A stretch of 63,336 bases of DNA, filler included, from Circinaria calcarea (lineage: Eukaryota): NCBI GenBank assembly GCA_051942165.1. It is 11 parts of 11 records of this genome, joined end to end, with 100 filler letters (N's around TTAATTAATTAA, not from the genome) between each part and the next. Parts side by side here need not be neighbours in the genome. Positions count along the whole stretch, not along the records: positions 1 to 5,687 come from JAVECS010001822.1; 10 more parts are not named here. One strand, written 5' to 3'. A program made the position numbers and the translations under genes. Every line of letters begins with the position of its first letter. The stretch's first letter is position 1. The notes beneath the pieces were generated by a model, which worked only from the letters and a program-made list of their open reading frames with translations, searched no databases and was not told the DNA's origin. Below, in pieces: positions 1-61,139 of the stretch.

Positions 1-644
1 CTTTAGCCCGGGGAGGAGGGGGGGGGTGGTAAATTGGTGAATTTGGGAAGAAATGGAGAATGGGAGAATGGAAGAATGGGAGATATGAAAAAAAACAAAA
101 ACATGGAGGTATGGTATGGTAGGGTAGGGGGACAAAAGGCAGGGAAAGCCCAAAATACGGGGGTTTAATAAAAGACTTGCTTTGGTTTGGGTTTTTCATT
201 TCATTTCATGGAATATAATATTTCTGCTATTCTGCATGTGATGTGTGATGAACTGTAACTAACTGTACCTGTACAGATTAAATTGGGGTTGGGGGAGAAT
301 TCTTGTCTTGTCTTGTCGTTTTACTAGTAGAACCCTGAGAGAGAGGAAAATTAGATTTGTGTTTGAAAAGGGGCCTCCATTTACTGTAGAGGGCGAAGCT
401 CGTGTTGGAGTAGGGATACAAGACATGTGGGGTATTGGAAATAAAAGGGGCATCTTTATGGCCCCCTTTTTCCCTACCTTCACGATAGTCTAACATGGGA
501 ATGAAAATGGTTTTCTAAAAAAGGCTGCTCAGCCAATAGACGACGAGCGAAAAAGCTATACTTTTGGGTATATGTCAAACAATAATTTCCCGGCCCCTCC
601 GTTTCCTATAACGCCCTGCTTGGGTCGTTTCAATACCGCTTGCC

Positions 645-1709
645 TCATCTGCCCATGTTCATTGCCTGTGTCAAGGCCAACCGCTTGCTGAAAGGACTTA
701 GACTTCTCTCCCTTCTAACAGGACGAGCAGCGATAGGAGGGTGTTGGACGGCGATGCCATCTCTGGCTCCACGTCCTCGATCTCTGAAATTACTTCCATA
801 TCTATCATTGTCGTTGGAATAGCGGCTCGAATTATTCCGTACCAGACGAGGGTGCCCGCCGTTCCGATCGTGATTGGACTGTGGAGCGGGCGTCATAGAG
901 TTGCGATTACGTGCCACTCGACTTCGGTCCCTACTGTGACTCCCGGATCGCGGGCGTCTGCTACCCCTGTTGTCACCGTACTCGCGCTCTCTACCACGGA
1001 TGTCCGGGCTGATTGAAGATCTCCGCCGGCGTTGGTTCCGGTAATCGTCTTTGAATCGCGATTTTCTTCTGCGCTGAGTGGAGGAGTCAGAGGAGTATGA
1101 TTCGGCGGAGGAAGAAAAGCTTCTTCGGCGCTTGCGAATGTCGCGTTCACTAGGACCTTGCGTTTGCATGCTGGGTTGAGAAGTGTAGTAGGCGGAAGGA
1201 GAATGGGCTTTCGAGCGCTTTGGCGATGGCGAGCGCGAGAGGTTTGTGGAGATTGTGGAGACTGATGTTGATGAATAAGATGATCGAGACCGTTTACGTG
1301 ATCCGTAATGGGAACTTTCCCGTTCTGCAGCACGCTTTCGCCCGCGTTCTTCTTGCTTCTTGGCTAGTTGCTCATCTGCAATGCCCTTTCTATCGAACGG
1401 AAAATCAGAAAAGAAAGTTCAGGCCCAAGGGAAGAAATCACGGACTTGCGGATGAGGTCGTTGGGTATGTCGCTTGTCAGCTTTGGTACAAGCTTCGGAT
1501 TTGCCAGTTGTTGGGTCCGGGACGGTCTGGTGGCATATGGCCTTTCTTGCGTCGTTGTCTTGCATTCGTAGCTGTAGTGCCGTAAATAAATGTCAGTAAG
1601 ATGTCAGGCAGGTGACAACATTCTACATATCTCGTTTCAGGCATTTTTGACATAGAGTCTGAGGTGAAGCCTTAGAAGGTCCAGAGAAGGCACCTCGTGT
1701 GCGGATCAT
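645..1709 (-). CDS. Zinc-knuckle (zf-CCHC_3 / ZCCHC10-like) protein with Arg/Ser-rich C-terminus; exons 1709-1631, 1581-1446, 1389-645 (319 aa)
   Basis: Spliced product MIRTRGAFSGPSKASPQTLCQKCLKRGHYSYECKTTTQERPYATRPSRTQQLANPKL contains an exact C-x2-C-x4-H-x4-C knuckle and joins in frame to ORF 645..1169 (RS-rich, ends RSLSPFSKRLALTQAMNMGR). Intron 1 (1582-1630) is AT-AC, intron 2 (1390-1445) is GT-AG. Exons total 960 nt, divisible by 3. Confidence 0.85.
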
Positions 1710-2428: not shown

Positions 2429-5038
2429 ATGGCGTCTCGAAATCCTCATGGAGCTGGGCCCAAGCTATCCTTTGCAAGTGTATGTATTGCACCTCATCGA
2501 GTCTTCCCTGACCGAAAGACTGACAGGTATAGGTCGCGGCAATGGCCCCTTTGGCCGTTCCGAATCAGCTTGCTGCTGTCACTGGAAACAAGAATCCTAA
2601 ATCTATCAAGTCTTCTTCTGGGGCTATCACCAGAGGAGTTTCGACGCATAGTCCATCAGCTTTGCCGCTTGACCGCGAATCACCCATAGCCGTACCCCGT
2701 TTAGACGTCAGAGAGTCGTCTGTTGGCATGATTCCGGAGCAGGAGATTATTGGCGCACTTCGATCAGGACTGAGGCTCGACGACGAGAAAACACACCTCT
2801 CCTACTCGTCCACGAAAGCTGCGAGTCTCGACGGCAAGAGTGTTGCATCAGGCACTACTTTTGCAATGGATGAAAAGGAGTCTCTTCGGCCAGATGACAG
2901 CGCCAGCGTAAAAGCTAGTGAAGAAGACGAGACTTACTCTGGCCCCGCATCCGGCGCTCCAAGCTCACGAGTGGGCTCAGAAGCTGGAGGCAAGGCTTTC
3001 CGAGACCAATTCAACGAGATATCTGAGCGGATAGGCCCTGGCGGTAGTCGAGGTCTACCACCAAGTCGCCGCGTCATTCCCGGCATCGCAGAAGAAGGCC
3101 CTCAAGGGACTGCAACCAATACGCTTCCCATCATCCCGACACCGACGAGTATGCCTCGACAAGAGCTACCGCTGGTTACCGGCACCCCGTTTGCGTATGA
3201 TTACCAACAACCTGATGAGAAACTCATCGAAGCACTGGAAACTCCCAAGGATCGATTATTTCTTCTACAGCTCGAGCAGCAAGTAATTTCATTCATCAAA
3301 GACTCCCAGTACGTCATCTACCCAAATTCTCATACAACCTACTGAAATCTGCTTCTAGGGAGCCCATATTAGATTTACCCCCGTGCAACTCATTTTGCCG
3401 GCTACTAGCACATAGGCTAGGTGACTATTACGCATTGACACATTTCGTCGACAACGCTGTGAGCGCTGTTCGACTTTACAGAACACCATATTGCCGGTTG
3501 TATGAAAGCCCATAATTAATCCGTCCCTTAACGGCTGCTAATTGGCTTGTAGGCCAACGCCTCTAGGTACTTTTTCCAAACCTCTAGGTAATTCGGATGG
3601 TCCTTTGTCTACCCAACCCTCTGTTAAGATTATGCGTCGGGCTGAACTCGGGATTGATGGTCAAAATGGTGGATCGGGAGCTAATACGAATGCAAGCTCA
3701 ATGGCTGCGTCCAAGGCAGGCTCGGAGACAGGAGATGATAGTCAGCGAGGGACTGGAATGGTCTCTCCTACTGATTCGGCGAATGCGAAAGATAAATCTG
3801 CCATGACTCGAGAGGAAAGAGAAGCTAAATATAAAGAAACGCGAGACCGTATCTTTAAAGGGTTTGAAGACACCGAGAGTCCGGAAATCGTGACTGGAAA
3901 CGATACGCCTAACGAAGTCTCTCGCACGAGTTCAACTACGGGGAAAAAGAAAAAAAAGCCTAAACACAACGACGATGGCTTTGAAGCAAGGTCGCAATTT
4001 AACGCCTACTACCCCCCAGTTCCGTATTCTGGGCCTACGTACGACCAGGCAGCTAACCCTTCAACCTTCTTCAGTCCATACATGCCACAACCAAACAATC
4101 AGCCAATGCATACTGCTCTGCCGCAAAGCTACAACCAATCATTTCAACCCGCACAACATTCACAAGCGTATCAGATGCAGACCCATCATGCTTCTATGAC
4201 CAACGGAAATGTTCCATATGCACAACATAGCACTGGACCACCTCTTATGCCATACATTCAGCAGATGCCTGGGCAATACTATCAGTCTTTGCCGCAAAAC
4301 CAGATGGCTGAAGCATCCTCAGCAATATCGTCACCGGCGCTGAGTAATAGTACTCACTTGTCTCGGCCACAGTCACAGATGTCTGATCAAAATTGGTCCC
4401 CAAGTAATTACTCCAGCCAGTATCAAATGTTTGGTGGTCCGCAGCCGGCTTATCAGCAGCAAAATCAATCGATGATGCAGGCGAACACACCCACAACTGG
4501 CATGCCAGTCATGACATATCCGTTTGGACAATTACCTTTCCAACCGGCAATGCAAGGTGGAAGGTCACAGCATCCGTTGCCTGGCAGTTACAATCGGCAA
4601 GTCTTCAACCCTCAAACACAAGCTTTTGTGCCTAGTAATGGTTTCGGTCCTCAACCAGTTGGTTATGTCAACAGATCCGGTTACCTGCAAGGAAATGCGC
4701 CCAGAGCAAACAACCAGGCTGGGAACGGGGTCCCGTTTGGTCAACAGCAAAATACCCATTTTCAAACGCCTCAGACACCCCAACCGGGGCAATTTATTAC
4801 TCCTTACATCAGTCCCCCCTATACCGCTCGGAAGAGTACAGGGCAGACACCACGATCGCAGTCACCTGGTCAAAGTACTTTATCGAAATGGGGTACTCCA
4901 GCAACTCTTCCACCTAAGCCACCTCCTCCAGAAGCACCTAGTGCGTCAAGCATTTCAACTATGCAGAATATGACCAGTGGACAAGGCATGCCAACTTTTC
5001 AGAACGGGACCTATTCAGCACCAGGTAACACTATCTGA
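2429..5038 (+). CDS. R3H + SUZ domain RNA-binding protein (Encore/ARPP21/Rbs1-like) with Gln/Pro-rich tail; 3 introns
   Basis: ATG 2429 (MASRNPHGAGPKLSFAS); intron 2480-2532 joins ORF 2542. The exon near 3359-3499 gives EPILDLPPCNSFCRLLAHRLGDYYALTH (R3H motif RLLAH). Next exon has SUZ-like MTREEREAKYKETRDRIF and a low-complexity Q/P/Y tail. Confidence 0.85.
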
Positions 5039-20489: not shown

Positions 20490-22579
20490 ATGAAGCGGAA
20501 GCTCAACGAAGACGACGTGCCGACTCCAGTGGTGCTAGCTACACCGGAGAATAAGACCAGTCGGACCTTTGAAGAATTGGGCCTGGACTCCCGCATTTTG
20601 CAAGCCATAGCCAAAGAAGGATTTCTACAGCCCACGCCTGTTCAGGCGCAATCGGTGCCATTGGCATTGGAAGGAAAAGACATCCTCGGTCAGTCCTATC
20701 TTATATCAACCCGGTAAACTGACGGCGTAGCTAAGAGTCGCAGCTCGCGCAAGCACTGGATCCGGGAAGACCGCGGCGTATGTGCTCCCAATCCTGGATG
20801 CTATCCTGCGTCGGAAAGCGGTAAATTACTCCCAGGGGTTTAATCAATAATATTCTGACCTGAACGGACAGGTCGAGCCTCTTGTCAAGGCAACCACGGC
20901 CCTCGTTCTTGTTCCCACCCGTGAGCTCGCCGAACAGGTCTCAAGAGCGATCAAAACATTCTCTGCATACTGCACGAAGGACATTCAAACCCTGAATCTG
21001 ACACAGAAGACATCAGATGCAGTGCAACGTGCCCTGCTGGCCGATTCACCAGACATTGTCGTGGCCACGCCAGCTCGCGCCTCTCTGAAACTGAGTGCCT
21101 CGGCCCTATCGGTAGAGAATTTGGCGCATTTGGTTATCGATGAGGCAGATCTGGTGTTGTCATATGGGTATGAGGAAGATCTGCAAAATGTCGCAAAGGT
21201 GATACCGCAAGGGGTGCAGACATTCTTAATGAGTGCTACCTTGACGACAGAAGTGGAGACCCTGAAAGGGCTTTTCTGCAGGGACCCTATTATTCTCGAA
21301 TTGGAAGAAGCCGCAGGAGACGATGCTGGGGTGAGCCAATATGTAGTCAGGTACGTTTAAGAGCAGGATACACATAGAGTTGTCGTGTAAATGCTGATCT
21401 CATGGCAAACTTAGATGCGCGGAGGACGAGAAATTCCTATTAGTCTATGTGATATTCAAGTTGAAGCTCATCAAGGGGAAGTGTATTGTCTTTGTCGGCG
21501 ATATCGATAGGTGCTACAGACTGAAGCTGTTCCTTGAGCAATTTGGTACGAAAAGCTGTGTACTAAATTCCGAGCTACCTGTGAATTCGCGAATCCATGT
21601 GGTCGAGGAGTTCAATAAGAATGTCTACGATATTATCATAGCTACGGATGAACAAGAGATATCAGGGACTGCTGAGAGCAGCAGCTCTAAGAAAACCAAG
21701 GTCAGAAAGACGGATTCTAAATCACTCAATGGTGAGAATGCCGTTGTCGAAGATGGTGTTACCAATAGTGGGCTACCTACGGAGGAAGTGGATGACAAAG
21801 TTGGCAAGTCGCAGCTCGAAGCAGAGAGTCAATCAAATGAACCCATCAAGAAGAAGCGCCGCATTGCGAAGAAAGATAAAGAATACGGAATCTCCCGTGG
21901 TATCGACTTCCAAAATGTTGCCTGCATCTTAAATTTCGACCTACCTACCACCTCAAAAGCTTACACTCACCGCATTGGACGTACCGCCCGCGCAGGAAAA
22001 ACAGGAATGGCCCTCTCTTTTGTGATTCCCGCCGATCTTTATCACAAACATAAGCCTACCTCCTTTCCCACCGCCCAACACGATGAAAAGGTCTTGGCCA
22101 GAATCATGAAACAACAAGCCCAATCCGGCAAAGACGTCAAACCTTATCACTTTGACATGAAACAAGTCGATGCTTTTCGTTACCGCATGACCGATGCCTT
22201 ACGCGCCGTTACCCGCCTCGCCATCCGCGAAGCCCGCACGCGCGAGCTCAGGCAAGAACTCGTCAAATCCGAAAAGCTAAAACGACACTTTGAAGAAAAT
22301 CCCGACGATCTTCGTCATCTCAGGCACGACGGAGAGTTGAGGGCTGCGAGGGTGCAGCCGCATTTGAAACATGTACCGGACTATCTGATGCCGAGCAATG
22401 GGAATCAGGGGATTGGGGGAAAAGATGTCGGATTTGTTGGGATGGGCAAAGTGAGCGAAAATCGCATCAGGAAGGCACGAGCGCAGAAAAGAGCTGGAGG
22501 AAAGGGGCGAAAGCTAGCGGCGAGAAAGGGAGATCCTTTGAAGACGTTCAATGCTAAAGGGAGGCGCTCAGGTGCATGA
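20490..22579 (+). CDS. DBP9: DEAD-box ATP-dependent RNA helicase Dbp9 (DDX56); 3 introns
   Basis: MKRKL start, Q motif, [52 protein letters not shown], and the Dbp9-specific HLKHVPDYL and KGDPLKTF. Confidence 0.95.
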
Positions 22580-25869: not shown

Positions 25870-25875
25870 TATAAA
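25870..25875 (+). promoter_or_regulatory. Candidate TATA box of the Ecl1-family gene
   Basis: TATAAA about 145 nt upstream of ATG 26019, followed by a pyrimidine-rich leader. Confidence 0.45.
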
Positions 25876-26018
25876 GTCCCGTTCCCCTACTCTTTCGATA
25901 CCTCACCATTACTTTCGTCTTGTTATTCGTCCATTGTCGAGTTCATCCTCGCTGCCTTACGTCTTCCAATACACCAAGCCCCGTCTCACCAACCGACGCT
26001 CCCAAAAGTCAAAGAGTC

Positions 26019-26513
26019 ATGGAGATGGATTGGTCGTTGGACTACTGCCTCGCATGCGATCGACAGACTGCGGGAGAAGCGTATTGCTCTCAGGTCTGCC
26101 GCCTCGCCGACCTTGACTCATCGTCCTGCGGTTCCGAACCTGCCTCGCCAACCACCGAGAACACACCTTTGACCTCTTGGAGCTCGAGCGGCAAGGTTCC
26201 ACACGCCGGCTTCCATCTCCCTCCTGCCTTTGACTTTTCCGCCTACCGTTCTCATACACCGCTCTCAAGTGTCGCCATTCGCACTCCATCTGTGGATTCA
26301 CGTTTTACTCGCAATTCAAAGAACTGTGGAGCTTTCTCTGCATCATCCCCTCGAACCCTTACGCCATCGTCGTCTCAGACTTCCCTCACTTCGATGCACA
26401 GCATGTCGGCCTCGAACGAGTCCATCTCTACCCAGGCCAGGGATGAGCTTCGAGACTATACAAACTCCTTTGATCAGGTTAGAGATTGGAGGAGACGTAT
26501 GATAGCTTCGTAA
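26019..26513 (+). CDS. Ecl1/2/3-family (extender of chronological lifespan) zinc-binding protein, 164 aa
   Basis: MEMDWSLDYCLACDRQTAGEAYCSQVCRLADL (CxxC-x9-CSxxCRLAD), LPPAFDF, Ser-rich middle, ELRDYTNSFDQVRDWRRR. Confidence 0.85.
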   Translation: MEMDWSLDYCLACDRQTAGEAYCSQVCRLADLDSSSCGSEPASPTTENTPLTSWSSSGKVPHAGFHLPPAFDFSAYRSHTPLSSVAIRTPSVDSRFTRNSKNCGAFSASSPRTLTPSSSQTSLTSMHSMSASNESISTQARDELRDYTNSFDQVRDWRRRMIAS

Positions 26514-29172: not shown

Positions 29173-31361
29173 TTGTTGGATTTTCTCGATGTCGCAGATC
29201 CTTTAATCCAATATCGACGATCTCTTTACGAAAGCAAGACCGCATATTTCACGCAAAGAACCTCGAGTAACAAGAAGAGATACGTCTATAACTTCAAAAA
29301 CCACTCGCTCCTCAACACTATGTTCAGGTTTGCTGATCGTTCAAAGGGAGATAGAGCCTAAATTCGATTGAAGTGCAGCGTCTGCTCTGAGTCGAATTAC
29401 TTCATTGACCGTACTCCTCGTTATGAGATAGCAACTGGAGTCTACCTGTCTCGCACTTTTAAGTACCTTTCCCGTTGCGCTTCCAAACGAGTTGTTCCCT
29501 TCGTCACCTTCGAAGCAAGCATACCATCCAGAAATTCATCAATGCAGCCGCAGCCTATAACAACGCTAAGAATCGCGAAATCGCAAAGAATATGACTTTC
29601 GCATCACGGACAGATCTGGAAGCTACAAATTCAGATCTGTTCGAGGCGTGGATCAGCGTCCAAGGATTCGAATGCCCCAGGAAAGACCGGAAAGAAGTCG
29701 TTGTCGACTGTGCTGACAGAATCCGACTATGGCTGGAATGCCGAAAATGTAGATGACGTCGAGCTACGGGGTCCGGCTAGACAGCCTCGAACCCGGGTAC
29801 ATAGCGTTACAGTAGGACCTGAAGAGGTTCGATATATGACAGACCTCGACGGACTTTCAATATACGGCCTGCGTAGATGGATCAAGTCCAAGGGTTGGAC
29901 AAGGCGTGTCGCTGGGATCAAATCAGCAAGATTGCTCGAACTCGCTCGAAGGATTTGGAACAATCCGGAGATCGTCCGCCATGAGGTTGCTCTCGCGCAG
30001 ATCTCGGTGAAATGCCAAGAGAGCATCTACGAACCTGGATTCGATCTCGAGGGTGGGCGCGGGAGACTCAGAAGATACGCAAATAGGGATTGCTTGACTT
30101 GGCTCGAAGGATCTGGGATAATGAAGTATCCTTTGATAACATCCCTCCCGCGCTCAACAAAGTTCAAAGCCGTAAAGATCTTGAAAAGCTGTCAAACCGC
30201 ACGATGTCTAAGTGGATCCGCTTCTATGGTTATGCAGTCGCCGCTTACGATACACTGCCAAAGGAACAGTTATTAAATCAGGCTTGCAAGGTCTGGATTC
30301 ATTTGAAAAGTACCATGGACTATAGCGTTGATAGAGCGGAAGACCTAAAATCAAAGCAAAGGGAACCCACTCGCGCCATCAAGGACTCCAAAATCCCCAA
30401 AAATTGTTCAGACCTCGTGAAGATGAATGCAAATGAGCTTCCCAAGTGGATAAGGTCTCAAGGAGTTATCATTCCCGGGCTTCAATGGACAAGGGAACTT
30501 CTCCTACCTCTGGCTGAGAAAGTATGGGCTGCTCTTAACGATGGCCAACCTCTGCCGAAAGATGTGCGGATGGTCCGGAAATCCCCTGAAAGCCGTCCCG
30601 GTATAATTCATATGCTTGGGAAAGACCTAAGGCTTTGGATCAAATCTCACAACGTACCCATGGGAGCGAAAGTGACGAAGATCGAACAGATTCGGTCTCT
30701 AGCTGAGCAGGTATGGGATGCCATACAGAACAGTACTTTGTTCGACCTAAGGAACAAGCGGAGCCACTTGAGACTGGACAAGGTGAAGGGGCCTCAGACT
30801 CGGGAGGACCTTGGGAAAATGAATGGGAGGGACCTAGAGTACTGGATTGCTTGCCAAAAAACTCGCCAAGGTTATACGCCGGGTGTTGAAAGGGTAGAGT
30901 CGAACAGGCATGAATATGAGTGTGCTATGAATGCGCAACACTGCAAAAAAGCACCATGGGCCAAAGCCCCTATATGTAGAGCCGCATGACGAAACCAGAA
31001 TCTTTCACCACTTCGCCACTCCCGCCACATGTGCCGTATTTCCGTTCTAGACCCCTGAAATCGCCTAATTTCAACACCGGGTAATGGTATAACAAGTAAG
31101 CGACTGGCTTTCGCTGAGACAATATGGGACGCTATAGAAGCCGGTACCCTAGACAGTTTGCCCAAGCGCAACTCAGCGCCACCAAATAAGGTCAAAGTGC
31201 CTACCGCCATAGAACACTTTAGACGAATGGGTGTGGCAGACATGATCCTTTGGATAAGGTCTCAAGGGGTGTTGGTTAAGGGGCGTGACGCAAAGAAGGA
31301 AAGAGCTATAGCTCTAGGCGAGAGGACGTGGGATGCCATCGAGAGCGACAACGCTGGATGA
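29173..31361 (+). pseudogene. Disrupted gene encoding 8 tandem ~40-aa SAP/HeH-like repeats (DLxxMxxxxLxxWI[RK]SxG...LAxxIW)
   Basis: Repeats are visible across ORFs 29475, 29701, 30090 and 31158. In-frame TAA 29359 and TAG 30084, about 3 frameshifts, and one insertion. Confidence 0.7.
30877..31081. mobile_element. 205-bp MITE-like insertion (Tc1/mariner type, TA target duplication)
   Basis: Ends CGCCGGGTGTTGAAA ... TTTCAACACCGGG, flanked by TA (30875-76 and 31082-83). Removing it plus one TA (207 nt) restores repeat 7 in frame. Confidence 0.6.
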
Positions 31362-40690: not shown

Positions 40691-42558
40691 CTAACACAAG
40701 AACTTGTACGCCTTTTTCCACCGCGGCCAATTCGCTTGCTCCGCTCGCTCTTCTGCAAGCAGCTCCGCCAAATTCATATCCCGCAGTCCCGTCTTCAAAT
40801 CCATGTCCCGGCATTTCATGAATGGGGTACTATGCCTGATCTTATACCATGTGTAGAATGCCAGTACGACCGGGGCCGCGAGGTAGGCTTGGAAGAAATT
40901 TGATGTGTTTTCGGCAGCTGTATTCTCCTGGAATCCTATAGGTGCGAACCCGGTCCAGAATTGTGCTAGAAGAATAATCCCGTTAATCGTAAGGCCGACC
41001 CAGGAACCAAAGACACCAGGCTGCGATCGGAAGGCTAGCTCATCAAGGCTATGGCCCTGCAAACGCCATGCTTTACGAAAGCGAATGTGAGCGAGACAAA
41101 TAGAACCCCATGTAAAGACAGAACTGAGACCACTAAGCGCCAGCAACCAATTGAAAACGGCAACCTGCGCGTGCGAGGCCGCGAGAAATGAGAGCAACCC
41201 AATCGTGGAAGCGAACAGGATGGCAACCAGGGGCCGGCCTCGCCTGTCGATGTATGCAAACATCTTCGGCGCTTGTTTTTGCTCGGCAAGAGCAGCAAGG
41301 GTGCGGGAAGAGCCAAAAACAGCGGAATTACCCACAGACAGTACCGATATCATGATAACGACGTTCATCACCGAATCCAGGGCGTAGATGCCGGCATTCG
41401 CAATGGCAATTACAAACGGTGAGGCGTGGGCGTTGGCGGTATTGTAACCTAAAAGCTTGGTTTCTGTATAGGGAACCAGTAAACCTACCAGGAGCAGGGA
41501 GATGTTATAGAATAAGGTTATGCGCCAGAATACCTGCTTTACCGCCGTCGGCAAGGACCTTCGTGGATTGGCCGTCTCGGCTGCAGCAAGACCGACAAGT
41601 TCGGTACCACCAAAGGCAAACGCGGCAGTTACAAAGACTGAGCACAATCCTTTAAAGCCGTTGTTGAACGGGCCGGGATCGTGCCAGTACTTTCCACCGA
41701 TATAAGTCCCGTTCGGTCCTCCCCCGATGTTCAGGATCACACCGAGGAGACTGGATGATGGTTAGCGACTTGAAGCGGGCGATATCAAAAGCCATGACTT
41801 ACATAAATCCCGTGACCGCAATCACCTTGATTATAGAGAAGACGAATTCCGCTTCGCCATATCCTTTCACCCCGAATAGATTTATAACGACAACCAACAC
41901 CAAAAATATAGCCACCCACGCGGCGTTTGAAGTAGTGGGTCCCCAGTAGTCTAAAGTTAGCGACGCAGCAACGATTTCGAGTGGAAGTACGGCCAGCCAT
42001 TGCAATGCATAATTCCAGCCCATGGCGAATCCCCATGCAGGATCCAGGAAGCGAGTCGAATAGGCCGAGAATGAACCAGCAACGGGAAACGCCACTGCGA
42101 GCTCGCCAAGAGCATGGCACGTACAGTATATCATTATGCCGATTAAAGAGAAGGCGATGAGTAGGGATGCGGGACCACCGTAGGCCAAGGCTCGTCCAGA
42201 CCCGACAAATAAACCCGTACCTAGGATACGTATCAGTACCTGCCCAGATGTGATATCCTTTCGAAGTCCTACCAATTGATCCACCGATAGCGATCATCTG
42301 AAGGTGCCTCCCCTGGAGTTTTCTCAACAGAGGCGAATCTGCGGTTGCCTGTGCAGCGGCCCCGGCGTCGAAAACCCTCGAGTTGGAACAGTTTGCACCC
42401 TTGGGGTTCACCCGACGATTCGGATCACGCTTGAAGCCATCCAGAGTTCTCCGGACGAAACTGGCCTTGGGCCGTCTGGGGTCACCCCACGCCGATAAAA
42501 ATTCTGGAGAGTTGAAGTTGGCGGAGAAGTCGATCGACTCGTTATCTTCTTTTTCCAT
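40691..42558 (-). CDS. Amino acid permease (APC superfamily, Gap1-like/YAT family); 2 introns
   Basis: LQGRHLQMIAIGGSI|GTGLFVGSG, GELAVAFPVAGSF, YGEAEFVFS, AFAFGGTELVGLAAAET, DRRGRP, AHIRFRKAW. Confidence 0.93.
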
Positions 42559-46742: not shown

Positions 46743-48102
46743 ATGCGCACTTCCCGCATTTCCCAAGAGACCTCCAAGATCGTCCAGGCTCTGTCGCCGT
46801 CCACGAAGCTGCTTTCACAGCGCCGTACCCGATCCTTTGCAGTCTCTCCAGCTCCCCCCGCCGCAAATGCCTCTTCCCCTATCACGACCGTAAAGCCGTC
46901 TGAAGGAAGTAGCGAGCACGATGCCGACTCCTCCTCCCTCTCCTCCGTCCCCTCGGACATCTCCTTTGACATTGAAGATCCTCCCCCGTCATTGCACCTA
47001 CCGTCCCCACACCCTACTCGAAAGCGAAAGCGGAAAGCAGGCACCGGCGGCCCTTCGACGACCACCATCACCAGCACTTCTACCAGCGTAACCACCCCTA
47101 CTTCGCCCCGGAAGCTCGGTATCAAAGACGAGGACGACGGGGACCGGAACGTGAAGAAAGCGCGTCGGCGGCCGGCGAAGAAGGTCGTCAACGAGGGCGG
47201 AGAGGTGGAGATTCACCCGCCGGCCCATTGGGAGGAAATCTACGATGCGGTGAGGGAAATGCGGAAGACGGCGCTGGCGCCGGTGGATACGATGGGCTGT
47301 GAGACGCTGGCAGAGGAGCATTTGACGCCCAAGGTATTCCGAAAAGCCCGCCGTTGCCCCTTAGCTACGGATGAGAACTGCATGGCTGAACAACACTTGC
47401 TAGGACAAACGCTTCCAAACTCTCATTGCCCTCATGCTCTCCTCCCAAACCAAAGACACCACCAACGCCCTCGCCATGCGTGCCCTGCAAACCGCTCTCC
47501 CTTCGCCGGGCCTTACCCTCGCCAGCATCCTCGCCGTCGACCCGGCCACCCTCAACCAGCTCATCTTCCCCGTCGGCTTTCACAATAACAAGACCCGCTA
47601 TATCAAAGCCACGGCGCTCATCCTACGCGACCGGTTCGCCGGCGATATCCCGGATACCATTGACGGCCTCATGAGCTTACCGGGCGTGGGGCCGAAGATG
47701 GCGTACCTGTGCTTGAGTGCAGCGTGGGGCCGCACCGAGGGCATCGGGGTAGATGTGCACGTGCATCGGATCACGAATCTGTGGGGATGGCATGCGACCA
47801 AGACGCCCGAGGAGACGAGAGCGGCTCTGCAGGCGTGGCTGCCGAGGGAGCGATGGCATGAGATTAATAAGCTGCTGGTCGGGTTCGGGCAGACAATTTG
47901 TTTGCCGGTCGGGAGGCGGTGCGGGGAGTGCACGTTGAGTGCGAAGGGGTTGTGTCCTAGTGCGGTGGTGGGGACGAAGAGGGCGGTGAAGCGGGTGAAG
48001 AGGGAGGAGGTTGTTGAGGAGGCTGGGAAGGTGCTGAAGGTGGAAGAGGAGGAGGTAGTGGTTGCGAAGGAGGAAGATGTTGTGGTGGAGGATATAAACT
48101 AA
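46743..48102 (+). CDS. NTH1: Endonuclease III homolog (DNA N-glycosylase/AP lyase, HhH-GPD with 4Fe-4S motif); intron 47334-47403
   Basis: MRTSRIS start, [37 protein letters not shown]-x6-C-x2-C-x7-C cluster. Confidence 0.93.
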
Positions 48103-48236: not shown

Positions 48237-49481
48237 TCAGTACAGTAACTTGAAGAACCAGAAATAGCCATAGACTAGGACTCGAAGGAAAAACAAAACG
48301 AAAGCATTGTTCTCATCAGCAAGAGCGTGAATGAGATAGCTTTCGATTGAGGTTCTCGGGGCCCCTTTGGTAAAGTACATGTCCTCCATCATGCACTTGG
48401 TAGTCGTCTGCACCTTGACTGCTCTTTGGAACATATCCTTCTCGAATGCCTCTACCTTCTCGGTCAAGGCATCCCTTCCACCTGCTTTTTCCGCTTCGAT
48501 AATCGCGAAGGCCAGCTTCATCGCATCGACCATGGCCAGGTTGACTCCCTCACCTGCGTAAGGTGTCATCAGATGCGCGGCATCTCCGATTAGCGTCACC
48601 CCCGGTCTGTTTTCCCATCGATTTCCAACGGGTAGCATGTATAGCGACCTTGAAACCATAGTGTCCTCGTCCACCGCCGGTATCAGCTTCAATAGTTGCG
48701 GCGCCCAATCCCGAAACTCTTTGGTGATCGCCGCCTTCTCAGCTTTGGCATCATGGACATTGTTTTCACGATTTTGGTTCCAACTTCCGTCTCTGACGCT
48801 CATAGCAGTCACGTACAGGCTACCGTCGCCTTTTTGCTGAGCCGTGATCGACTTGCTGTCCGAGAATGCAAATACCGACCCACGGTTTACCAGGTCATAT
48901 AATTCCGGATATCGCTCCTGGACGTTGGATACGAAACCCCACATGCCCCCAATGCCGGAGTAGTAAGGCTGTTCCTTGGACACCAAAGGTCGCACTTTAC
49001 TCCAAGCACCATCAGCTCCCACTATGAGATCGAACCCTTTCTCGAGGCCATGATCGAATTGAAGTGATAGATCGTCATTGACCTTTCGCAGGCGGTGATT
49101 CCATCGAATCATGTCGTCGGGTAAGGACTGCACTAGGATTCGACGTAATTGCTCGCGATCGATTTCTGGTCGCCCTCGAGAAGTTTCCGAGGTGGTCCCT
49201 TTCATGCTGATGTACTTTTTAAAGTTCTTGTCCGCAATCGTAAGAGCTTCGCCGTCAAAGCGAGCATACTTGAGAAACTCGTCGTAGAGCCCGGCTTTCT
49301 TCAAGACAGCGAGACCGGTATTATCGTGAAGATCTAGGGTACCCCCTTGGGTACGAAAGTCCAGTGATGATTCGCTTTCGAAGATGGTGACGGAAATGTC
49401 AGAATGGATGAGGAGTCGGGCCAGGGTACAGCCAGCAGGGCCGGCCCCAATTATGGCAATTTTTGGAGAGAGGAGAGCCAT
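48237..49481 (-). CDS. Class A FAD-dependent monooxygenase, TetX-like, intronless, 414 aa
   Basis: GAGPAG, QGGTLDLH, RPEIDR, DLIVGADGAWSKVR, LIGDAAHLMTPYAGEGVNLAM. Confidence 0.9.
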   Translation of the reverse strand: MALLSPKIAIIGAGPAGCTLARLLIHSDISVTIFESESSLDFRTQGGTLDLHDNTGLAVLKKAGLYDEFLKYARFDGEALTIADKNFKKYISMKGTTSETSRGRPEIDREQLRRILVQSLPDDMIRWNHRLRKVNDDLSLQFDHGLEKGFDLIVGADGAWSKVRPLVSKEQPYYSGIGGMWGFVSNVQERYPELYDLVNRGSVFAFSDSKSITAQQKGDGSLYVTAMSVRDGSWNQNRENNVHDAKAEKAAITKEFRDWAPQLLKLIPAVDEDTMVSRSLYMLPVGNRWENRPGVTLIGDAAHLMTPYAGEGVNLAMVDAMKLAFAIIEAEKAGGRDALTEKVEAFEKDMFQRAVKVQTTTKCMMEDMYFTKGAPRTSIESYLIHALADENNAFVLFFLRVLVYGYFWFFKLLY

Positions 49482-58445: not shown

Positions 58446-59093
58446 TTTTTCACGGTTCGAGATCAATTCTCTAGATTAGTTCGAGAAGGATGATATAAAC
58501 CATGCACTCTTTTAGCAACAACATAAATATACAGAACAGACAGGACCGAAGGGCTGAATCGCTTTCGAAGCTTTGGGCTGATTCAACTTACCATGACCGC
58601 CTTCGAGCGGCCTGAAGATAAGGGAGAGTCAGAAGCTGACTATGCCAAGTCAGGACAGGAATACGAAGGAGCTCGTCTCAACTTTCCATGCACCGGGAGG
58701 CCGTGCGAAGGTTATTCTGCGTGTAGTCTAACTTCTTCGTAAGGATATCGCACTGCACGGCTGACATCAGTCTTGGCTTGCGGTGAAATGTACTCTTTGT
58801 TCCCCTCACATTTGGTGAATCCTTGCATTCGGACAGCTCTTTCAAGCCATCTGCGTCAATATGAGCGTAATCCCGACGCTATATGACGCCTATACGGTGC
58901 GGTTCCAACTGAACAGCTGAAGTGGAGGTTGTATAGGCGGTCAGGCTGAGCTTTAACAAATATATATAACGTACTCCCACATCATGAGTAACAAGGAATG
59001 GTGCAAACAAAGTCTTGAGCTCAGGAGCAGCGGTACCAGATTTAAAAATAATAAAGATATTCAATCCAATCATACCAGTAAAAGGAATACAAT

Positions 59094-61139
59094 ATGGAAT
59101 TTACCAACCAGGGCTCGTCAATATATCACCAGATTCATTCCGTATACGCCCGCAGCGATGACGGTCGTCTTCGGTATATCTCAGGAAGGCACGCAGAAGC
59201 AATAACCAAAATCTGGCCAAAGATTGTGCGGGACCTCAGAGATCTACAGTGTCCGCACGACGAGTTCCCAGTCGCCGAGCAAAGTCAAGACGAATGCGTC
59301 CTGCCTGCGGTCCAAACCTGGGAGCCATTGCCGAGCTTAGATGGAATAGCAGGGTCTTGGTCCAACGCATCATTGAGCACAAACCCCAAGGAACTGGCAG
59401 TACGGAAATTGATTCCAAGTGCTTTCGGCATCCAGGAACTTCGCCGTCAAGGTGAACAACAGATTGTTGGCATTGTGATGGACAGACCACAGAAATCTGG
59501 CGCAAAGGCCGACTTTTCTCGCTGGTTCATCCATTTCATACTCCACGAAACAAGGCTACAGCTGGCCGACATCACTCAAAACGATAGGTACAATCGTAAA
59601 ACCGTTGAAGACGTCCTGCAGATCTTCGAAAGTACACTGCGAAACATTGCCAGCCACGACGAATGGGAGAGCGGCGGCGGTCGAAATTATTTTAAGCAGC
59701 AGCTCGAATGGTTTATCAGTCGCAACGCGAAAATCGAATTTTGCTTACCTGCATTTCCTTGCAAGTCTTCTAACCCCTTGAAGGTAGCTGGCGTGGATCC
59801 GGACTTGGCCGAAGAGATGGCCTTGTCACGTCTTGACGAGTTTGTCAGAAAAGTCGAGTGTGTCTATGAGCCGGGGGCCAAGGTGTGGATAGTTTCGGAT
59901 GGTCATGTTTTCTCCGACTGCAGTAAGTAACAGCCAGTACGAACTAGAACATCATACGTCCTTGCTCCCCACGACGCTAATACAGTGATCGTTTGACTAG
60001 TCGGTGTTGAGGATAATATGGTCGATCGGTATAGTGAGGTCTTGACCGAATTAAACCGTGCTATTGTCCAGCGGCGTGATACAACAGAGGGGGTGCAGCT
60101 TTACTCTCTATACGATCTTTTTTTCGGCAATGAAGGGATCCGTAGTCTGTTCCGACACGACTTTGTACGTGGCTTCGACATATGCCATCCCCTTGGTTTG
60201 CCGGTCGCGGAAAAGCCCGAGCTTTGCCGAAAAGTCCTCATGGCAGGCTGCCATATCGAGAGCAATGCACTCAGGTCCCAAATCAAAGACCAAGACGCCT
60301 CCATTCTCGCACTGTACAGAGGCTTTTCAAGGTTCATGTTGCAGGACCTATCGGCCAATGAGAGGATGTCAGGACTCTCGAAGCACAAGTGCAAAAAGCT
60401 CGCGTCAGAGGTCGCGTTTGAGATGATATCTGTAAGCTTACACATGCTCCTAATAGTGCGGCTTCTCGAATGAGTGCCGTGAATGATATACACGCTAAGT
60501 CATGTGGGTAGAGAAATCAAGCGTACTCGAATTTGGTCGAGCTCCTTTTCCCATACCATATTAGGCTATCTATACACGCGTAAGCTTTGTGGCATCACAA
60601 TGGGGCGTTCTAGGTACTGACTAAGCTGCAGTCACAAGAACAGCGGACCCAAATTCGGGGTCAAGCTTATCTCAAGCGATTGTTGCCGAGCGGTAGAATC
60701 GTTGGAAGGTATAACGCAGCGAAACACCACTGACCTTCTGCATATTCCTACTCCCTGGCACAACACTCCGTGTAGAGTCCAGGACGACCCAATGGTTTAC
60801 ATCACGAAATCTGAAGTCATCCACAAGGGGATAGCTTCACGCGAGTTCGAGGGTGAGTGGATCCCTTCGAGGTATGGGCGTGGCGGATTCTTTTCTCTGC
60901 GCAGGAAGAGCCAGCCAGGTCCAGCACAGACGGAAGCCAAGGGAGCACGACCCATGCGTCCACAGGCGCCTCAAAGACGCCGGTCCTCCTTTAAGGATGT
61001 GCCTGACCGTAGAGAAGCGCTTCGCAACGAAGGGTACAGGGCTTGGTATTTGTATGAGTTTTACGATTTTGTTGGTGCCGCTCTGAACTGGATACTTTGG
61101 TCAGCACAGCCACAGCGGTTATGGCACCACACTAGTTGA
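59094..61139 (+). CDS. DIT1: Dit1/PvcA-family isocyanide synthase (pyoverdine/dityrosine biosynthesis protein); introns 59923-60000, 60432-60511, 60580-60631
   Basis: FCLPAFPCKSSN, YEPGAKVWIVSDGHVFSDC|IGV, LYRGFSRFMLQDL, RNQAYSNLVELLFPYHIRLSIHA|HKNSGPKFG, LHIPTPWHN. Confidence 0.92.

Follow-up and report, generated by a model that had tools for sequence, protein, structure and literature searches.

A conserved AT-AC intron, very probably spliced by the major spliceosome, in a zinc knuckle gene of Circinaria calcarea and other Pezizomycotina

Introns with AT-AC ends on an otherwise U2-type 5' splice site are scarce where they have been counted, with 15 in human, 6 in mouse, 3 in fly, and 0 in both worm and Arabidopsis (Sheth et al. 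2006, PMC1557818). That study takes as its criterion a 5' site that fits the U2-type consensus except at position +1; the introns of SCN4A and SCN5A have been demonstrated to be U2 dependent, the TAF2 intron is conserved from human to fly, and filamentous-fungal xylanase genes have been hypothesized to contain U2-type AT-AC introns (PMC1557818). The donor consensus of the class in metazoans is /ATAAGT (Qin et al. 2016, PMC5029451), and AT-AC introns are rare in fungal annotations (Frey and Pucker 2020, PMC7072748). Here we describe an AT-AC intron of 49 nucleotides (nt) in a zinc knuckle gene of the fungus Circinaria calcarea, at positions 1630 to 1582 on the minus strand of a 63,336-nucleotide stretch of joined parts from assembly GCA_051942165.1 (the whole stretch is called the window below). 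It is very likely a genuine spliceosomal intron excised by the major (U2-dependent) spliceosome, that is, of "type II"; we infer its U2 dependence.

Other described systems share some of its features. In both yeast and human, a G-to-A change at the first intron base is rescued by a G-to-C change at the last (PMC1557818), which agrees with the preliminary description of this locus, where A...C terminal pairs were said to be able to compensate each other. Introns engineered to be /AT-AC/ (Parker and Siliciano 1993, cited in PMC5029451; PMC1557818) have the same end bases and a host that possesses only the major spliceosome, but they were made as double mutants in the laboratory and are spliced less efficiently, whereas the fungal intron is natural and has been kept across six classes. 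The nested AT-AC intron of RPL30 is comparable in that Saccharomyces cerevisiae, too, is a fungus that lacks a minor spliceosome; its 5' site is atypical, the form accounts for 1 to 2% of transcripts, and its effect is non-coding, in contrast to the productive and conserved junction of the knuckle gene (Qin et al. 2016, PMC5029451).

An earlier record of the intron itself very probably exists in Fusarium graminearum. In a supplement based on RNA sequencing (RNA-seq), Zhao et al. (2013, PMC3577648) list 28 genes that have non-canonical sites; one of them is FGSG_10073, with a 52-nt AT-AC intron. This intron superseded a predicted one with its acceptor 3 nt farther upstream, and primers for confirmation by reverse transcription-PCR (RT-PCR) are listed (PMC3577648). 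The translation of the reverse primer, HGGRHQ, is present in the F. graminearum member of the family studied here (P0132) and absent from the other 238 of the 239 proteins compared. This match makes it very probable that FGSG_10073 is the ortholog and that its AT-AC intron corresponds to the one described here. The listing gives FGSG_10073 without remarks on what the gene is, on its zinc knuckle, on conservation, or on the type of intron (PMC3577648). A second AT-AC intron listed for F. graminearum, of 347 nt, is in FGSG_08743 (PMC3577648, supplement file 4). We found no paper in open-access text that describes the AT-AC intron of the knuckle gene. This kind of intron was already known, and the depth of its conservation appears to be undescribed in the open-access literature.

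The elements of the C. calcarea gene are the following.

1631 to 1709, minus strand: exon 1, with ATG at 1709-1707 and 26 codons (MIRTRG...CQKCLKR) plus the G (1631) of a split Gly codon
1582 to 1630, minus strand: AT-AC intron, 49 nt, phase 1
1625 to 1630, minus strand: 5' splice site ATATGT, equal to the major-type GTATGT apart from A at +1
1603 to 1607, minus strand: a second CTGAC, inside the AT-AC intron
1592 to 1596, minus strand: branch site CTGAC, whose branch A (1593) is 11 nt away from the 3' end
1582 to 1584, minus strand: 3' splice site TAC, placed from the sequence and the orthologous introns
1446 to 1581, minus strand: exon 2, with GG of the Gly codon, HYSYEC...DLIR, and AA of a split Lys codon
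1390 to 1445, minus strand: intron 2, canonical GTCCGT...ATAG, 56 nt, phase 2
645 to 1389, minus strand: exon 3, an Arg/Ser-rich tail ending ...RERSLSPFSKRLALTQAMNMGR, with stop codon TGA at 647-645 and a C-terminal box common to homologs
1572 to 1626, minus strand: decoy canonical pair, from GT at 1626-1625 to AG at 1573-1572, 55 nt, in frame, with the His deleted (CLKRDIYEC)

The ATG at 1709 opens MIRTRGAFSGPSKASPQTLCQKCLKR, followed by a single G at 1631, and exon 1 therefore has the 3' end ...TGC CTG AAA CGA G; in homologs its product begins MIRPRG.... The 49-nt segment reads ATATGTAGAA...CTGACATTTATTTAC on the minus strand, and the 3' exon begins GG CAC TAC AGC TAC GAA TGC at 1581. Exon 2 holds the His and the last Cys of the knuckle as well as a conserved RPSRTQQL box. 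Together, the three exons form an open frame of 319 codons with the N- and C-terminal boxes that are conserved in the family, while retention of the AT-AC intron in the transcript would give GAT ATG TAG, a stop at once. The junction is fixed: the last base of exon 1 is G and the last base of the intron is C, and the first base of the intron is A and the first base of exon 2 is G. These mismatches at the borders confirm the earlier statement that the junction cannot slide.

Exon 2 alone scored 42.7 bits against the Pfam domain zf-CCHC_3 (PF13917), for which the cut-off is 27. On this profile, residues 15 to 26 of exon 1 correspond to positions 2 to 13 and the exon 2 peptide corresponds to positions 15 to 41, so that the two exons are short of exactly one residue, the split Gly. 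Its codon, G|GG, fills this one-residue gap only when the 49 nt are excised, and a complete C-x2-C-x4-H-x4-C knuckle is obtained only by AT-AC splicing, as the preliminary description had proposed when it called the restored knuckle perfect. The sequence from the branch site to the His codon contains no AG, and the His therefore cannot be kept with any canonical acceptor. Both this His and the Gly that precedes it are invariant across the family.

PF13917 was present in all 120 homologs among the matches listed. The search of representative proteins reached close fungal relatives, its best 150 matches all being at least 66% identical to exon 2. The family is annotated as "zinc knuckle-domain-containing protein," and one member (P0410) bears the source name "zinc finger CCHC-type containing 10" (ZCCHC10). 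From its Pfam family and that one name, the predicted product of 319 codons is a ZCCHC10-like Arg/Ser-rich protein. No related solved structure was found in the PDB. Spectra of human ZCCHC10 have been obtained in C-complex spliceosomes only (Schmidt et al. 2014, PMC3923134). A role in splicing is plausible for the fungal product, if weakly based, given the presence of human ZCCHC10 in the C complex and common membership in a Pfam family.

Use of the junction was observed in the RNA of a relative. Related sequence was found in two public sequencing runs, which share 0.08 and 0.05 of the sampled words, and was compared over positions 500 to 1900. An RNA contig of 356 nt (X2 record 6) joins 1581 to 1631, skipping 49 nt; the join is unambiguous, with 136 nt on its shorter side. 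This contig has 31 differences per 353 aligned bases (ca. 91% identity to the window), and intron 2 is excised in it as well (1389 joined to 1446). A DNA contig of 1,235 nt (X1 record 1) runs uninterrupted through 550 to 1720 and has three additional bases within the AT-AC intron. The X1 and X2 runs both cover 25 of the variant places listed, and they agree on the alternative letter in 24 of these, which indicates that the RNA and DNA contigs represent one lineage, 91 to 92% identical to the window. The 1631/1581 junction that had been predicted from the sequence was matched exactly in this relative.

We examined orthologs at the DNA level in leotiomyceta classes of Pezizomycotina. A scan of metagenome contigs with the family alignment yielded 339 confirmed stretches, and the best 80 were analyzed by looking upstream of the His codon of each locus for the exon that encodes Cys-x2-Cys. 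Sixty of the 80 loci have an intron at this codon. All 60 begin with AT, 55 end with AC and 5 with AA, and GT-AG was found in none, so that the conservation at this phase-1 position about which the preliminary description had asked holds fully at the 5' end and in 55 of 60 loci at the 3' end. The intron is absent at this codon from 19 of the 80 loci. One locus (L046) is too short upstream, yet it ends ...CTGAC...GTAC ahead of GC-CAT.

With the window included, the orthologous introns comprise 36 distinct sequences, which form 32 clusters at 80% intron identity (29 AT-AC and 3 AT-AA). The commonest donor hexamer is ATATGT (15 of 32 clusters) and the second commonest is ATAAGT (8 clusters), followed by ATGAGT and ATAGGT (3 each) and by ATAGGA, ATACGT, and ATATGA (1 each). 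Among the 36 distinct introns, +1 is A, +2 is T, and +5 is G in every case, +3 is A in 32 introns and G in the remaining 4, and T occupies +6 in 33; at the acceptor, -2 is A in all 36, -3 is a pyrimidine in 35, and -1 is C in 33 and A in 3. Intron 2 served as a control. Its first and last bases are both G in 40 of 40 distinct sequences, of which 39 are GT-AG and 1 is GC-AG, and its +3 to +6 consensus equals that of the AT-AC intron, so the difference between the two introns is confined to the first and last bases. This pattern of terminal bases is far beyond chance.

The geometry of the AT-AC intron is also narrow. Its branch motifs are of the CTRAY type (CTGAC, CTAAC, CTGAG, or CTGAT), and the branch A lies 10 to 12 nt from the 3' end in 33 of the 34 distinct introns with a recognizable motif (mean, 10.8 nt; standard deviation [SD], 0.87). 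Intron length ranges from 46 to 61 nt. In the same loci, intron 2 has a branch spacing of 13.2 nt (SD, 4.3) and a length of 48 to 146 nt, and the spacing given for fungal introns in general from Trichoderma RNA-seq is 16.5 ± 7 nt (PMC4324775).

In the three AT-AA clusters (L049, L054/L071, and L079/L080), the Ser of His-Tyr-Ser is encoded by TCN, so that the TAYAG decoy acceptor is missing. This decoy AG, 10 nt downstream, is found in 28 of the 32 clusters, and L040, an AT-AC cluster, is the sole further one with TCN. The association of AT-AA with TCN may reflect shared ancestry rather than a functional link, as these counts ignore phylogeny.

Annotated proteins carry the same signature, in the form of errors. 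Our tally covers 334 homolog models, with one set aimed at Sordariomycetes and lengths of 121 to 387 residues; 96 proteins added later were left out. The correct x4 spacing is present in 204 models. Another 50 read through the intron where its length is a multiple of 3; in such a model, the split codon consists of G plus the first two intron bases, and the codon before the His consists of the last intron base plus GN. Asp follows CLK[KR] in all 50 (G|AT or G|AC, never G|GT), and Arg precedes the His in 49 of the 50 (the last intron base is not G). A further 72 models, which are truncated or fragments, have no Cys-x2-Cys half; 67 of them have Arg before the His, and 22 have RYV in another frame, i.e., AGATATGT.

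Faulty models with the AT-AC signature come from six Pezizomycotina classes: Lecanoromycetes (Loxospora), Candelariomycetes (Candelaria), Eurotiomycetes (Histoplasma, Emergomyces, and Cladophialophora), Dothideomycetes (Phyllosticta, Lasiodiplodia, Patellaria, and Lepidopterella), Leotiomycetes (Tricladium, Lachnellula, Cudoniella, and Clarireedia), and Sordariomycetes (Trichoderma, Anthostomella, and Daldinia). Correct and wrong models occur side by side in Histoplasma capsulatum, in Clarireedia jacksonii, and in the genus Phyllosticta, and a correct model is therefore no proof of a GT-AG intron. Up to 130 of the 334 models are missing an intact knuckle, although some of these are possibly mere fragments, which bears out the expectation that predictors would mis-call this intron. 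The knuckle is lost because predictors permit GT-AG or GC-AG only, and a junction-specific annotation rule would mend the affected models of the family.

The intron described here resembles the animal type II introns of SCN4A, SCN5A, and TAF2 in its AT-AC ends on a major-type 5' site, in long conservation among orthologs, and in its rarity; the metazoan consensus /ATAAGT is the second commonest donor hexamer among the fungal introns. It differs from them in belonging to a lineage reported to lack a minor spliceosome, in its length of 46 to 61 nt with a CTRAY branch at a fixed spacing, and in having AT-AA variants. U2 dependence, shown for the SCN4A and SCN5A introns, is very probable for the fungal intron. 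The features of a U2-type AT-AC intron that we find are AT...AC ends that cannot be moved, a 5' site with the U2-type consensus except at +1, and borders that are used in the RNA of relatives.

The first and last bases of an intron pair with each other at the second catalytic step, and an A...C terminal pair can replace G...G, whereas A...G or G...C cannot. We propose that the AT-AC intron is recognized by ordinary fungal major-type signals, namely ATATGT behind an exon ending in ...GAG, the CTGAC branch, and short size. It departs from a normal intron only at its ends, with A for G at +1 and C for G at the last base. Because intermediates with a single change between AT-AC and GT-AG would be defective, the intron could stay AT-AC, drift to AT-AA, or vanish, and would never become GT-AG. 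The 3' end is probably set by distance from the branch A, held at 10 to 12 nt, since AC cannot be selected as AG is. Splicing at these positions would restore the Gly codon and the C-x2-C-x4-H-x4-C knuckle. Both the reasoning on terminal pairs and the rule that distance selects the AC are our inferences.

Loss of the intron is seen in the 19 loci that have no intron at this codon. Intron 2 is retained in five of them (L016, L017, L022, L077, and L078), and 14 are without both introns. Thirteen of these 14 have open frames of 311 to 449 codons that end in the C-terminal box of the family, and in the remaining one (L070) the frame is still open where the locus ends, after 264 codons. Several intron-less loci are on contigs of 20 to 227 kb. 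The largest intron-less group is the Pleosporales, where a stretch of 110 residues of L072 matches a protein of Alternaria burnsii at 100% identity. The Pleosporales orthologs (L065 to L075 and relatives) have neither intron, and other Dothideomycetes retain the AT-AC signature, which places the loss in Pleosporales. Judged from these loci, evolutionary change at this site is whole loss of the intron, not conversion to GT-AG.

An intron that is never GT-AG, sometimes AT-AA, and sometimes lost offers a clean view of the fitness valley between intron end-states. It is also a deeply conserved natural test of the rule that the first base pairs with the last, free of confusion with the minor spliceosome, and several of the fungi that bear it are easily manipulated (Fusarium, Aspergillus, and relatives of Neurospora).

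Several observations weigh against this interpretation. The RNA junction comes from relatives and not from C. calcarea, in two runs with the small shares given above, and it is known by position, the variants listed extending to position 1138, short of the end bases of the relative's intron. The loci are metagenomic contigs, and the clusters are not phylogenetically independent lineages. The link to FGSG_10073 consists of a single six-residue primer translation together with a matching intron size and place and is not an alignment. Finally, a branch-to-3' spacing of 10 to 12 nt is typical of U12-type introns as well.

The origin of such an intron invites speculation. It could be a relic, an ancestral U12-type AT-AC intron that passed to the major spliceosome upon the loss of U11/U12 in Dikarya and that has been locked as AT-AC, since each single-base step toward GT-AG would block the second catalytic step. 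It might also act as a "gauge" of that step, being an intron with a slow second step in the gene of a protein associated with the catalytic-stage spliceosome. We regard this scenario as unlikely. With regard to U12 ancestry, ZCCHC10 does not appear in the examined supplements of PMC11347168 or PMC10639083, which therefore provide no evidence either way.

A related idea is that the intron is a real U2-type intron whose ends are kept for a purpose, the slow second step tuning the level of a spliceosome-associated protein. The detection of human ZCCHC10 in catalytic C-complex spliceosomes only (PMC3923134), the narrow limits on intron length and branch spacing, and the decoy AG that most clusters (28 of 32) have 10 nt downstream would all fit regulation of this kind. 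However, Pleosporales keep the gene without the intron, which is therefore dispensable, and a fitness valley from AT-AC to GT-AG explains the conservation equally well; we consider retention for a purpose very unlikely.

The decoy pair could instead be the main form in C. calcarea, yielding a protein without the knuckle His. It is present at 1626-1625 (GT) and 1573-1572 (AG), keeps the frame over its 55 nt, and leaves the branch A a workable 21 nt from its AG. The decoy GT-AG is always in frame because the donor shifts by +4 nt and the acceptor by +10 nt. Gene predictors do choose it: 8 of the 334 models (P0270, P0298, P0089, P0254, P0256, P0257, P0294, and P0330) resume at xYEC without the His motif, using the AG within the Tyr-Ser codons, i.e., the decoy acceptor, and in P0270 (CLKRDIYEC) and P0298 (CLKRDNYEC) this AG is paired with the shifted GT. 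The RNA contig of the relative has the AT-AC junction, however, and not the decoy; moreover, the decoy donor GTAGAA has no G at +5, and the His and its preceding Gly are invariant in the family, with the Pfam profile requiring the residue. The decoy may occur as a minor isoform, but that it should be the main form is highly improbable.

U12-type AT-AC introns have the 5' site /ATATCCTT and the branch TCCTTAAC. Removal of the C. calcarea intron by the minor spliceosome would be in keeping with its terminal dinucleotides and with its short branch-to-3' distance of 10 to 12 nt. Against this, neither the ATATCCTT nor the TCCTTAAC motif is found in the 36 distinct sequences (ATATCC, 0 of 36; CCTTRAC, 0 of 36), and positions +3 to +6 vary as they do in major-type donors, so the donor and branch site are of the major type, without a U12 motif, as first described. 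An Rfam scan, confined to the 63-kb window, gave no family above threshold. The machinery itself is reported to be missing from the host lineage: Ascomycota are said to have no minor introns or minor small nuclear RNAs, and Dikarya no minor spliceosome (Larue and Roy 2023, PMC10639083; Olthof et al. 2024, PMC11347168), and these reports agree with the view in the preliminary description that a minor spliceosome was not to be expected here. A U12-type intron is extremely unlikely.

An artefact, whether a normal GT-AG intron altered by two sequencing or assembly errors or a pseudogene in decay, has nothing but the rarity of AT-AC in its favor and a negligible chance of being correct, given the identical 5' ends in 60 of 60 intron-bearing loci from many separate assemblies, the signature in 50 read-through models, and an open frame of 319 codons with conserved terminal boxes.

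Elsewhere in the window, long frames between 13952 and 59930 matched ordinary fungal families in Pfam, as follows.

21398 to 22579: Helicase_C
25875 to 26513: Ecl1
30087 to 30989: Ish1
40691 to 41761: amino-acid permease
47404 to 48102: HhH-GPD
48237 to 49481: FAD_binding_3
59082 to 59930: DIT1_PvcA

Of the 19 long frames scanned, 9 had no Pfam match at 1e-5. The knuckle gene has a divergent neighbor on the plus strand (2533 to 5038), which encodes a SUZ domain (PF12752, 9e-11) and Gln/Pro-rich tails and has at least one intron near 3345 to 3542. On the other side, the 3' flank of the knuckle gene (window positions 1 to 330) contains low-complexity C/T-rich runs and the short repeats ccattct and accatacc.

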